Positions 9,785 through 13,482 of a stretch of 64,000 bases of DNA are shown one piece after another. Source of the DNA: Escherichia phage vB_Eco_QOTSP; sequence record OY720014; one strand, 5' to 3'. The position numbers were made by a program, and so were the translations under genes. The notes beneath the pieces were generated by a model, which was not told the origin of the DNA, did no database searches, and saw only the letters and a list, made by a program, of their open reading frames with translations. Position 1 is the first letter of the stretch, and every line of letters starts with the position of its first letter.

Positions 9785-11296
9785 TTATAAATTAACTGTT
9801 TTCATTACGTAATTAAATTTTTCATCTGCGTAGCGCTGAATACGATCAATGCCGTGTTTTAAAAGATAGTTCAAATGAACATATTTCTTTTTCGTATTAG
9901 CAGATTTTGGCTTAACGCCACAATCATCTATGAGGTCCCAGACGGTTGCTATTGTCTTAGAACCATGCTTACGTAATACACGACCGATTGTTTGTAATAC
10001 AATGATTTTTGATTTAACACCGTGCGCTAAAACAACGTGATGCAGATTTTTAACTGAAATACCAGTAGAAAATACACCATAACTAGCTACTATAATTATT
10101 CCTTTACCATTTTCAGCTAAGGTTTTCATTATATTGCGGGTTTCGGTATCAACTTCCCCTGATACGTAATAAACTTTATCGTATTCATTTTTAATTAAAT
10201 CGAAAATAGCTTTACCATGTGATACATGTTTAAACATGACAAAAGCGTTTTCATCTTTTTGCGCAAGCTTAATAGCTAATTTAGCGATCCATTTATTTCT
10301 TTTACTAAGCCCCGTAATAATTTTTATTTCTTCTTGATAAGTTTTTCCCTTTAATTTAGTAGTGAACTCATCGGGATAGCGAAGAAAAATACTATTAATT
10401 TTTAGCTCAGTTACTTGTCCATCTTCCATTAATTTAGAAGTCGTTACTGGTTTAAATATTTCACCAAACATTCCAACATACTGCATGATATTGGCTTTGC
10501 CATCACGTAATGAACCAGATAGACCAAATTTGAACATGCAGTTATTTAAACCTGATATGATAGATGAAATACTTTTTCCTGTAGCAAGATGGCATTCATC
10601 ATTCATCATCATTCCAAACTGTGAGAACCATTCTTTCGGTTGTTTTACTACAGTTTGCCATGTACCAACAACGACTGGTGCATCATTTTTATATTTATCA
10701 TCTTTTGATGCTCCGCCACCAATTTTCTTTATCATTGCATGACTGAATAGACGATAGTCGACGAAGTCATCAGCCATCTGAGTTGTCAGAGCAGTTGTTG
10801 GAACAATGATAAGAATTTTACCTTCATAATTTTCCAAATAATATCGCGCAAGCAAAGCTTGAATTAAAGATTTACCTGCAGATGTTGGAAGATTAAGAAT
10901 TCTACGACGATTAACTAATCCTTCGAACACTGCATCTTTTTGATACCAGTGTGGTTCAATTCTTTTATTTCCTGAATAGATTTCTAATTTAGAAAGCCAT
11001 TCATCAAAATCTTTTCTTGATAATTCTTCTTTTTCGTTAATTTGTGGGTCAATCCAGGCTTTATAGCCAAAGTTATCACAGAACTTTTTAATTTGCCCGA
11101 CTAAGCCGAATGGAAGAAGGCGATTATAATCTAAAAGACGGATTCGTCCATCCCAGTGGCCATATTTGTATTTCGGATTAAAACGATACCCATCAGCTTC
11201 AAAGCTAAAGAAATCACGGAGTTCATGAAATGTACTTTCTTCACAATCAATTCTCACGTGACTAAAATCATAAAAATGTACTTTAATGTCAGTCAT
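9785..11296 (-). CDS. uvsW: UvsW DNA/RNA helicase
   Basis: 503 aa; Walker A (TSAGKS) and DECH box. Confidence 0.9.
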   Translation of the reverse strand: MTDIKVHFYDFSHVRIDCEESTFHELRDFFSFEADGYRFNPKYKYGHWDGRIRLLDYNRLLPFGLVGQIKKFCDNFGYKAWIDPQINEKEELSRKDFDEWLSKLEIYSGNKRIEPHWYQKDAVFEGLVNRRRILNLPTSAGKSLIQALLARYYLENYEGKILIIVPTTALTTQMADDFVDYRLFSHAMIKKIGGGASKDDKYKNDAPVVVGTWQTVVKQPKEWFSQFGMMMNDECHLATGKSISSIISGLNNCMFKFGLSGSLRDGKANIMQYVGMFGEIFKPVTTSKLMEDGQVTELKINSIFLRYPDEFTTKLKGKTYQEEIKIITGLSKRNKWIAKLAIKLAQKDENAFVMFKHVSHGKAIFDLIKNEYDKVYYVSGEVDTETRNIMKTLAENGKGIIIVASYGVFSTGISVKNLHHVVLAHGVKSKIIVLQTIGRVLRKHGSKTIATVWDLIDDCGVKPKSANTKKKYVHLNYLLKHGIDRIQRYADEKFNYVMKTVNL

Positions 11297-11346
11297 GTCT
11301 AAATACCATGTAATAAATATATCTATATTTATACTGAGGAAATATT

Positions 11347-12027
11347 ATGATAGATAAAGATTATATTGCAGAGCTGAAGGCTCTTGATGATAACAAAGAA
11401 GCTAAAGCTAAATTAGCTGAATATGCTGAACAGTTTGGTATAAAGGTCAAAAAGAATAAATCTTTTGATAATATCGTTGTTGATATTGAAGAAGCTCTCC
11501 AGAAGCTCGCTAGTGAACCTATGCCAGAGACTGATGGGTTATCTATTAAAGACTTAATTGATGCTGCTGATGCTGCAGAGGGATTAAAATATGACGATGA
11601 AGAAGTCAATCCAGAAGCAGCACTTTTGATTGATTCTCCAGTTAAATCTGACATTAAAATTGAAGTAGTAGAAACGGATAAAATTCCTGAAAATACCGAT
11701 GTTTTGATTGAAGATACTCCTTTTGTTGAAGAAAAATTCGAACAGGCTGTAGCTGAGATTATTGAATCTGAAAAGCCGTCTGTATTTACTCTTCCGGAAA
11801 ACTTTAGCCCGAATCTTCAGTTGATTGGAAAAAATCCAGGATTCTGTACTGTTCCTTGGTGGATTTATCAATGGATCGCTGAAACTCCGGATTGGAAATC
11901 TCACCCAACTAGTTTTGAGCATGCTTCTGCACACCAAACATTATTTAGCTTAATTTATTACATTAACCGTGACGGATCAGTTTTAATTCGTGAAACACGC
12001 AATTCTTCTTTCGTAACATTAAAATAA
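11347..12027 (+). CDS. inh: Inh, inhibitor of prohead protease (by position and size)
   Basis: 226 aa ORF immediately upstream of hoc. Confidence 0.65.
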   Translation: MIDKDYIAELKALDDNKEAKAKLAEYAEQFGIKVKKNKSFDNIVVDIEEALQKLASEPMPETDGLSIKDLIDAADAAEGLKYDDEEVNPEAALLIDSPVKSDIKIEVVETDKIPENTDVLIEDTPFVEEKFEQAVAEIIESEKPSVFTLPENFSPNLQLIGKNPGFCTVPWWIYQWIAETPDWKSHPTSFEHASAHQTLFSLIYYINRDGSVLIRETRNSSFVTLK

Positions 12028-12036
12028 GGATAACTT

Positions 12037-13455
12037 ATGGCTTTTACAGTTGATATAACTCCTAAAACACCTACTGGAGTTATAGATCAGACTCAGCAGT
12101 TTACTGCTACGCCCAGTGGTCAAACTGGAGATGGACCTATTACATATGCTTGGACTGTTGATGATGTTCCACAAGATGGGGCTGAAGCAACTTTTAGTTA
12201 TGTACTAAAAGGTCCTGCCGGTCAAAAGACTATTAAGGTAGTTGCAACAAATCCAGTTCCTGATACTGAAGCTGAAACAGCAGAAGCTACTACAACTATC
12301 ACAGTTCAAAATAAGACACAGACGACTACCTTAGCCGTAACTCCTGCTAGTCCTGCGGCTGGAGTGATTGGAACAGCTGTTGAATTTACCGCTGCTTTGG
12401 CTTCGCAGCCATTAGGCGCATCTGCTACGTATCAATGGTACGTTGACGGTTCTCCTGTGAGCGAAGCGACTAGCGCTACATTCAATTACACTCCTGACAC
12501 AAGCGGAGTTAAAACAATTAAGTGTGTGGCTCAAGTAACCGCGACAGATTATGACGCAAAAGAAGTTACTTCTAATGAAGTGTCACTGACTGTTAATAAA
12601 AAGACACAGACAACTACTTTGGCAGTAACTCCCGATAGTCCTGCGGCTGGAGTGATTGGAACCCCAGTTCAATTTACTGCTGCCTTAGCTTCTCAACCTG
12701 ATGGAGCATCTGCTACGTATCAGTGGTATGTAGATGATTCACAAGTTGGTGGAGAAACTAACTCTACATTTAGCTATACTCCAACTACAAGTGGAGTAAA
12801 AAGAATTAAATGCGTAGCCCAAGTAACTGCTGAAAATTACAATGAAAAGGAAGTTACTTCGAATGAAGTATCATTAACAGTTAATAAGAAGACAATGAAT
12901 CCACAGGTTACATTGACTCCTCCTTCTATTAACGTTCAACAAGATGCTTCGGCTACATTTACTGCTAATGTCACTGATGCTCCAGAAGAAGCGCAAATTG
13001 CGTATTCATGGAAGAAAGATTCTTCTCCTGTAGAAGGGTCAACTAATGTATATACCGTTGATACCTCATCTATTGGAAGTCAAACTATTGAAGTTACTGC
13101 AACTGTTACTGCTGCTGATTATGATAGCAAAACTATTACGGCGGAAGGTCAAGTTCAGGTAACTGATAAAGTTGCTCCAGAGCCAGAAGGTGAATTACCT
13201 TATGTTCATCCTCTTCCACATCGTACTTCAGCTTACATCTGGTGTGGTTGGTGGGTTATGGATGAAATCCAAAAAATGACCGAAGAAGGTAAAGATTGGA
13301 AAACTGACGATCCAGATAGTAAGTACTACTTGCATCGTTACACTCTCCAGAAGATGATGAAAGACTATCCAGAAGTTGATGTTCAAGAATCACGTAATGG
13401 ATACATCATTCATAAAACTGCTTTAGAAACTGGTATCATCTATACCTATCCATAA
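12037..13455 (+). CDS. hoc: Hoc, highly immunogenic outer capsid protein with an extra Ig-like domain
   Basis: 472 aa; recognisable Hoc N- and C-termini; internal 288-bp tandem repeat. Confidence 0.9.
   Translation: MAFTVDITPKTPTGVIDQTQQFTATPSGQTGDGPITYAWTVDDVPQDGAEATFSYVLKGPAGQKTIKVVATNPVPDTEAETAEATTTITVQNKTQTTTLAVTPASPAAGVIGTAVEFTAALASQPLGASATYQWYVDGSPVSEATSATFNYTPDTSGVKTIKCVAQVTATDYDAKEVTSNEVSLTVNKKTQTTTLAVTPDSPAAGVIGTPVQFTAALASQPDGASATYQWYVDDSQVGGETNSTFSYTPTTSGVKRIKCVAQVTAENYNEKEVTSNEVSLTVNKKTMNPQVTLTPPSINVQQDASATFTANVTDAPEEAQIAYSWKKDSSPVEGSTNVYTVDTSSIGSQTIEVTATVTAADYDSKTITAEGQVQVTDKVAPEPEGELPYVHPLPHRTSAYIWCGWWVMDEIQKMTEEGKDWKTDDPDSKYYLHRYTLQKMMKDYPEVDVQESRNGYIIHKTALETGIIYTYP
12313..12888 (+). 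repeat. in-frame tandem duplication (2 x 288 bp, about 80% identical) encoding two Ig-like Hoc domains
   Basis: Units begin AAGACACAGAC at 12313 and 12601, each ending in the Lys codons preceding the next unit. Confidence 0.85.
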
Positions 13456-13461
13456 TCATAA

Positions 13462-13482
13462 GGGGCTTCGGCCCCTTTCTTC
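13462..13482 (+). terminator. intrinsic terminator after hoc (GGGGC-TTCG-GCCCC + T-rich)
   Basis: Hairpin and T-run seen. Confidence 0.6.

Follow-up and report, generated by a model that had tools for sequence, protein, structure and literature searches.

Tandem D2 domains in the Hoc protein of a T4-like Escherichia phage as probable old paralogues in a recombining, copy-number-variable cassette

The highly immunogenic outer capsid protein, Hoc, is a standard example of phage-mucus adherence and is in wide use for display; almost all studies of it have relied on the 376-aa form found in phage T4. The hoc gene of Escherichia phage vB_Eco_QOTSP (sequence record OY720014, of which a stretch of 64,000 nt, here called the window, was analyzed) encodes 472 aa, and the initial annotation attributed the difference to an extra Ig-like domain, gained through an in-frame tandem duplication of 288 bp and plausibly adaptive in the host environment. 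This raises the question of whether the extra domain is special to the present phage and what the two copies of the domain represent. The account that we consider very likely to hold is that the copies are old paralogues, that they belong to a recombining cassette of variable copy number, and that the two-unit allele is one of its common states. T4 Hoc itself is a 376-residue fibre of three Ig-like domains and a capsid-binding domain (Fokine et al. 2023, PMC10385173). According to the same study, 650 Hoc homologues keep strings of one to ten Ig-like domains, with “great variability” even between close relatives of T4 (PMC10385173). The Hoc of Serratia phage Muldoon has 10 Ig domains and that of RB49, known from a crystal structure, has three (both as described in PMC10385173), and the 283-aa Hoc of PNJ-9 is without domain 3 (D3; PMC11853027), which the window protein keeps. 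All three resemble the window Hoc in carrying a variable Ig string on a conserved capsid-binding domain, but the domains gained or lost differ. Variable Hoc domain number is already published, and two-unit alleles have been deposited and annotated many times; our literature search found no paper specifically on the tandem units of the second domain (D2) or on their history as paralogues or as a cassette. What is added here is that the duplication appears to be old, that D2 behaves as a cassette of one to four units, and that the D2 of T4 is a mosaic of both paralogue types.

The hoc gene of the window (12037..13455, plus strand, stop codon included) was identified from the list of open reading frames, a phmmer search and its match to the Hoc of phage PinkRuby. 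Its reading frame is intact and forms a single ORF. When compared with PDB sequences by phmmer, the product finds T4 Hoc (chain 5vf3_Z, 376 aa) as its best match, with E=8e-223 and in two pieces, such that aa 1-113 align with T4 Hoc 1-113, and aa 189-472 align with T4 Hoc 93-376. Because the T4 match is split around the extra unit, the two proteins differ in length by exactly one unit of 96 aa. The initial annotation had given the lengths of 472 and 376 aa and had equated their difference with one repeat unit, and on both points it was correct: the ORF list gives the former length, and both 5vf3_Z and the 1131-nt CDS of the T4 genome record give the latter. T4 Hoc is thus not itself a 472-aa protein with the same repeat.

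The position of the gene is that expected for hoc. The inh gene, encoding the prohead protease inhibitor (11347..12027, plus strand; assigned from its ORF and the T4-like gene order), is its conserved upstream neighbour, and the order inh-hoc-24.2-rnlB is found in the window as it is in T4. In the T4 genome record, hoc lies between inh and 24.3/24.2/rnlB, and comparison with the T4 annotation and 16 other phage records places the window gene likewise, downstream of inh and upstream of 24.3/24.2/rnlB. Over its first 24 kb, the window matches Tequatrovirus genomes, that of phage PhiZZ30 among them, at 98% identity, and the source of the window is a Tequatrovirus, a T4-like phage. A consensus scan revealed a terminator-like, GC-rich hairpin (AAGGGGC-TTCG-GCCCCTT, 13460..13477, plus strand) followed by a T-rich tail, beginning 5 nt past the hoc stop codon. 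Phage G10400 has a terminator annotated at the same relative position, and the hairpin is probably the hoc terminator. No exact match to the T4 late-promoter motif TATAAATA is present on the plus strand upstream of inh and hoc; the only copy near these genes (11326-11333) is on the minus strand, just upstream of uvsW and facing it, and the whole window holds 25 copies of the motif where 9.3 are expected. In the T4 record, the GIY-YIG homing endonuclease gene segE sits between inh and uvsW. The window has a mere 50-nt spacer (11297-11346) between uvsW (9785-11296, minus strand) and inh (11347-12027, plus strand), and segE is therefore missing at this site.

The internal repeat of hoc is unambiguous. 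Tandem Repeats Finder reports a period of 288 nt, with 2.1 copies across 12301-12894, 77% matches and a score of 713, and a second repeat finder returns the pair 12301-12588 and 12589-12876 at 76%. Set in the register 12313-12600 and 12601-12888, both units translate as KTQTTTLAVTP...SNEVSLTVNK and are identical at 221 of 288 nt (76.7%) and 78 of 96 aa (81%). The nucleotide identity of about 80% that had been put forward was right in pointing to high similarity, but the figure was slightly high. When the window is compared with itself at a shift of 288 nt, identity is 0.767 at the repeat against a background of 0.287 +/- 0.042, and it rises no higher than 0.375 at any other place in the 64 kb; the tandem repeat thus lies far above chance, some 11 sd over the background. 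The copies are arranged head-to-tail and, at 288 nt or 96 codons each, in frame. Their borders coincide with the structural domain borders, as aa 93-188 and aa 189-284 are each predicted to form one beta-sandwich. Repeat finders, Pfam, AlphaFold2 (AF2) and the T4 alignment thereby agree with the initial reading of an extra Ig-like domain built from in-frame 288-bp tandem units.

The domains of the protein, all encoded on the plus strand, can be assigned as follows. Ig-like domain 1 (D1; aa 1-92, 12037..12312) aligns with T4 Hoc aa 1-92 and is predicted to be all-beta, with an AF2 pLDDT of ~85-93. D2 unit 1 (aa 93-188, 12313..12600), delineated by repeat finding and PKD/Ig matches in Pfam and modelled with pLDDT >90, has no full-length counterpart in T4, its dS to the T4 unit being 0.76. 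D2 unit 2 (aa 189-284, 12601..12888) aligns with T4 aa 93-188 and is mostly orthologous to T4 Hoc domain 2 (92.4% nt identity, dS 0.17). Units 1 and 2 are referred to as the A-type and B-type paralogues, respectively. Ig-like domain 3 (aa 285-376, 12889..13164) is the equivalent of T4 Hoc domain 3, with Pfam Ig_3/I-set matches at aa 289-373, and its D342 corresponds to T4 D246. The capsid-binding domain at the C-terminus (aa 377-472, equal to T4 aa 281-376; 13165..13452) was placed by the T4 alignment, with limits as in PMC10385173. It differs from that of T4 at two positions (aa 377 and 397), as befits a Hoc protein, and its motif GELPYVHPLPHR...WCGWWVMDE is invariant in alignment A1.

Independent lines of evidence support this architecture. 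Within the N-terminal 375 residues, PF00801 PKD scores 38.6 bits with a cut-off of 23.5, its best stretch being aa 195-267 within D2 unit 2; BiPBP_C and PKD_3 likewise pass, and Ig_3, Ig_2, I-set and PKD_4 have significant E-values with scores slightly under their cut-offs. An AF2 model built from an 18-sequence alignment (mean pLDDT 83.5) predicts four consecutive all-beta beta-sandwich domains, with 10-residue block means of 81-96 over aa 1-380; the C-terminal domain of the model is of low confidence, as the alignment is shallow, and was excluded from use. The two repeat units have essentially equal predicted strand patterns, with two positions differing. Foldseek against the PDB returns four-Ig-domain proteins as top matches (the Dscam1 N-terminal part, Sidekick-2 Ig1-4 and ICAM-5 D1-D4; E ~1e-13). 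The whole-model TM-scores of these matches are low (0.15-0.26), because inter-domain angles differ, and the informative measures are the E-values and the number of domains in the matches. Since Pfam, the AF2 model and the Foldseek matches agree on a linear N-terminal string of Ig-like domains, the window protein is a Hoc with four Ig-like domains and a capsid-binding domain. It shares the D2 fold and sequence family with T4 Hoc (376 aa; PDB 5vf3, 8t1x; PMC10385173), but it has two D2 units where T4 has one.

Whether two D2 units are a peculiarity of this phage can be answered from its relatives. A megablast search with hoc against 50,697 phage records gave matches in 684. The best is the annotated Hoc of PinkRuby, with 97.8% nt identity over the full 1419 nt, and dozens more full-length 1419-nt matches are labelled Hoc, “PKD domain protein” or “capsid whiskers protein”. 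For copy number, rows were drawn at even spacing down the BLAST ranking of GenBank phage records, and 53 of them are full-length close relatives. Units were counted by hit span; a query spanning the junction between units was dropped, because the search joins non-overlapping pieces within 500 nt and single-unit genes would receive full coverage too. Sixteen of the 53 relatives have two units (spans of 1418-1419 nt), 34 have one (1117-1137 nt; T4 and T2 are among them), two have three or four, and the remaining one, PNJ-9, is without D3. The higher numbers were checked directly: the hoc of A6-6 (locus L024, 640-2346; 1707 nt, 568 aa) has three D2 units, and that of slur14 (locus L023, 346-2340; 1995 nt, 664 aa) has four. 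Among the best 120 protein clusters, Hoc is 376 aa long in 78, 472 aa in 29 and 567-570 aa in nine. The phages with a 472-aa Hoc (PinkRuby, Shigella phage A2, slur02/04/11/13, teqhal, AdolfPortmann, PhiZZ30, AlbertHofmann and others) share the orthologous two-unit architecture with the window at 89-98% nt identity over 1419 nt and differ from it by point differences only; the window allele is identical to no deposited record, PinkRuby being the closest. A6-6, UGKSEcP1/2 (568/570 aa) and slur14 have one or two D2 units more than the window but share its cassette, in which the first unit is A-type and later units are B-type or mosaic. The two-unit hoc is a common, ordinary allele, present in ~30% of the sampled close relatives, and with others carrying three or four units, the idea that the extra domain is special to the present phage does not hold.

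The same gene family is found, in one-unit and two-unit forms, in AlbertHofmann, LF82-4 and SHSML-52-1, which are classified as Mosigvirus. Because Mosigvirus phages carry the several forms, the hoc polymorphism spans the genus boundary, and it either crossed between Tequatrovirus and Mosigvirus by exchange or predates their split. The hoc genes at four Mosigvirus loci (L027, L032, L033 and L038) are ~87-90% nt identical to that of the window and include two-unit, one-unit and D3-less forms.

Other Hoc variants were met alongside. In a sister T4-like group, Hoc lengths are 282, 367-377 and 471-472 aa. Two IMG/VR contigs of this other lineage (L005 and L006) encode Hoc proteins of 472 and 471 aa in which D3, not D2, is tandemly duplicated; shifted by 94-95 residues, the D3 copies are 53% and 81% identical in aa, and they represent an independent duplication. 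A third contig of the lineage (L011) encodes a 282-aa Hoc without D2. As the sister group duplicates D3 and loses D2, gain and loss of whole Ig domains are recurrent in hoc. In a record of Escherichia phage T2 (MH751506.1; L037, 301-1417), the hoc region is unannotated and has deletions of 11, 1 and 2 nt relative to T4; it looks like a pseudogene, as these break the frame. The two-unit protein P0027 (468 aa) and the one-unit protein P0115 (372 aa) share the same in-frame deletion of 4 aa in D3 (EVTATVTAADYDS to EVTATDYDS), which could have arisen by slippage between short repeats, either recurrently or with spread by recombination. Protein P0047 (567 aa) has five Ig domains, of which units 2 and 3 are strongly diverged from the Tequatrovirus D2; its D3 is different and its D1 and C-terminal domain are T4-like. 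It looks chimeric, the partner being a more distant hoc lineage. Several Hoc clusters (P0015, P0008, P0021 and others) bear bacterial names (E. coli, Shigella sonnei) and the label “PKD domain-containing protein”, with one called “endonuclease”; they seem to be phage sequences contained in bacterial assemblies, the last one apparently mis-annotated.

The age of the duplication was approached through the divergence of its copies. Differences between units 1 and 2 fall at codon positions 1, 2 and 3 in the numbers 10, 12 and 45, and the Nei-Gojobori method gives a dN of 0.11 and a dS of 1.35 (dN/dS ~0.08), indicating strong purifying selection on each unit. Orthologous units of different phages have a dS of 0.03-0.63. 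Sixteen hoc genes supplied 28 D2 units for a unit tree: those of the window and T4, six further two-unit genes, six further one-unit genes, and those of A6-6 and slur14. Their DNA was taken from GenBank phage records, as IMG/VR gave only four close Tequatrovirus-type loci. For the 28 units, the nearest neighbours of each are units at the same position in other phages and never its own sister copy. The neighbour-joining tree has two clades (bootstrap 179/200), one holding every first unit together with the single units of SH-1, Sf22 and SsoM_113, and the other holding every later unit together with the single units of T4, SHBML-50-1, LF82-4 and SHSML-52-1. Units share 86% identity with members of their own clade and 79% with those of the other, and this A/B tree captures an average signal only, as it rests on 288 nt with heavy recombination. 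Because units group by position across phages and not by phage, the two units of the window appear to be old paralogues that predate the divergence of the phages compared.

The recombination that blurs the tree can be seen within single units. At the 67 sites at which the two window units differ, the single T4 unit, scored by the unit that it matches, reads 111111, then 45 consecutive “2”, then 1111111-2-111 and 222.2. The number of runs is 6, compared with an expectation of 25.3 +/- 3.0 (p<0.0002, 67 sites), so that the T4 D2 is a mosaic composed of blocks of the window's two unit types; most other units are likewise significantly blocky. When the proteins are scored by thirds, nearly every first unit of a multi-unit gene is “AAA” and most last units are “BBB”, and the 83 single-unit protein clusters include every A/B combination (BAA 21, ABB 13, AAA 10, etc.). 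The middle units of A6-6 and slur14 are A/B mosaics, and unit 3 of slur14 has the T4 single-unit pattern at 9 diagnostic sites. Copy number is scattered over the D1 tree and over the tree of D3 and the C-terminus, and those two trees are incongruent. No clean pair of parent and offspring related by a single crossover was found among SsoM_113/sb1, SH-1/window and SHBML-50-1/A6-6 plus slur14, all of which are multi-block mosaics. These mosaics bear on the premise that T4 represents the base to which the window has added a domain. The window does have one unit more, but as the single unit of T4 is itself a mosaic of both types, T4 need not be the base. Instead of being ancestral, its 376-aa Hoc may have arisen through the collapse of an array.

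Taken together, these data describe the D2 block as a cassette that varies in copy number (1, 2, 3 or 4) among phages of Tequatrovirus and Mosigvirus. As the units are 75-85% identical, they would undergo recurrent homologous recombination, and unequal recombination and conversion among units, within and between co-infecting phages, would expand, contract and shuffle the array. The two-unit allele of the window would then be one common state of the polymorphism, and the 376-aa Hoc of T4, with its single mosaic unit, would be another. Both D2 units would be retained as folded domains through purifying selection and would have diverged chiefly in their loops. The 18 aa differences between the units fall at 14 of 45 non-strand positions and at 4 of 51 strand positions (Fisher p=0.004, predicted strands), and with 14 of the 18 outside strands, the second unit can be read as a conserved core presenting different loop surfaces. 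A fuller version of this reading, in which D2 is a 1-4-unit array, T4 a collapsed mosaic of it, and copy number and loop types tune the reach of the fibre and its avidity for mucosal glycans, is a real possibility that falls somewhat short of probable.

It is also conceivable, if on balance doubtful, that Hoc is indifferent to how many Ig domains it carries and that their copy number is a neutral length polymorphism drifting by recombination, with no effect on function. Consistent with this notion, 1-4 units occur among very similar phages without a visible link to host or flank phylogeny, other lineages have gained a D3 copy or lost D2 or D3, and hoc is non-essential in the laboratory (PMC10385173). 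The strong purifying selection on each unit indicates that the domains matter, though not necessarily their number, and the concentration of unit differences in loops also speaks against pure drift. Copy number as such may nevertheless be near neutral.

A further alternative concerns the origin of the paralogues. Instead of a duplication in situ followed by divergence, long-diverged single-copy A and B alleles could have been joined by misaligned or illegitimate recombination during co-infection. We regard this as rather unlikely. Single-copy genes that are mostly A (SH-1, Sf22, SsoM_113) and mostly B (T4, LF82-4, SHSML-52-1) both exist, and recombination in hoc is pervasive. Yet such an origin would need D2 alleles separated by a dS of ~1 or more, flanked by D1 and D3 plus C-terminus at a dS of only 0.06-0.38. 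The A-then-B order, seen in 9 of 9 multi-copy genes at the DNA level and in nearly all 39 multi-copy proteins, fits a single founding event, yet it discriminates neither model from the other.

The proposal that the duplication is recent, confined to the lineage of this phage and favored by selection as an adaptation to the host environment, fares much worse and is very improbable. In its favor, the excess over T4 is exactly one unit, and Hoc Ig domains have been implicated in mucin binding (PMC9271167, PMC11853027). But the copies are 23% diverged and near-saturated at synonymous sites, and the orthologous two-unit gene is shared by numerous phages that were isolated independently and belong to two genera. 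A recent, lineage-specific event should leave sister copies most alike; instead, identity reaches 99% between orthologous units but only 74-84% between the copies of a single gene, and units cluster by position. An assembly artefact or a pseudogene can be dismissed, as the frame is intact, copies at 77% identity are too different, and the structure occurs in many independent genomes.

If, as we favor, the two-unit allele is one state of an old recombining cassette, the remaining question is what a second D2 would do on the capsid. The four-domain fibre of T4 Hoc is ~180 Å long, and that of the window would thus be longer by one Ig domain (~4-5 nm). From its capsid-binding domain, which is near-identical to that of T4, the 472-aa Hoc would be expected to sit at the centres of gp23* hexamers, one monomer each and ~155 per head; T4 Hoc is present at about 155 per capsid (PMC10385173). 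The longer fibre would also carry a second NEVSLT segment. Copy 1 (aa 180-185, 12574..12591, plus strand) matches the positions of S183, L184 and T185 of PNJ-9 Hoc (PMC11853027), in whose sequence residues 180-185 were confirmed to be NEVSLT, and copy 2 (aa 276-281, 12862..12879, plus strand) was located by sequence comparison. Of 168 D2 units examined, 167 carry it unchanged.

The published evidence on mucin binding points in more than one direction. For PNJ-9 Hoc, a natural variant without D3, D2 residues S183, L184 and T185 and MUC2 fucose were needed for binding (Fu et al. 2025, PMC11853027), and the D246N change in D3 of T4 Hoc alters affinity for fucosylated glycans (Chin et al. 2022, PMC9271167). 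In phiPNJ-6 Hoc, the isolated D1 binds MUC2, and D2 and D3 do not (Wu et al., PMC11150434), so that a second D2 need not add binding. Moreover, the SLT residues lie within the last predicted beta-strand of D2, and loss of folding, instead of loss of a binding site, may therefore be what the PNJ-9 mutations caused. Literature support for Hoc domain number as a host-environment adaptation is, therefore, mixed.

An extra D2 surface with diverged loops, along with a second NEVSLT segment, could change how far the fibre reaches or how avidly it binds fucosylated mucin glycans or bacterial surfaces, and the sequence of the second unit would agree with a gain in valency or a shift in specificity toward either. 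With about one third of close relatives carrying two or more D2 units, the natural variants of Hoc with one to four units offer ready material for examining the dependence of mucin binding on the length of the fibre and its domain valency.
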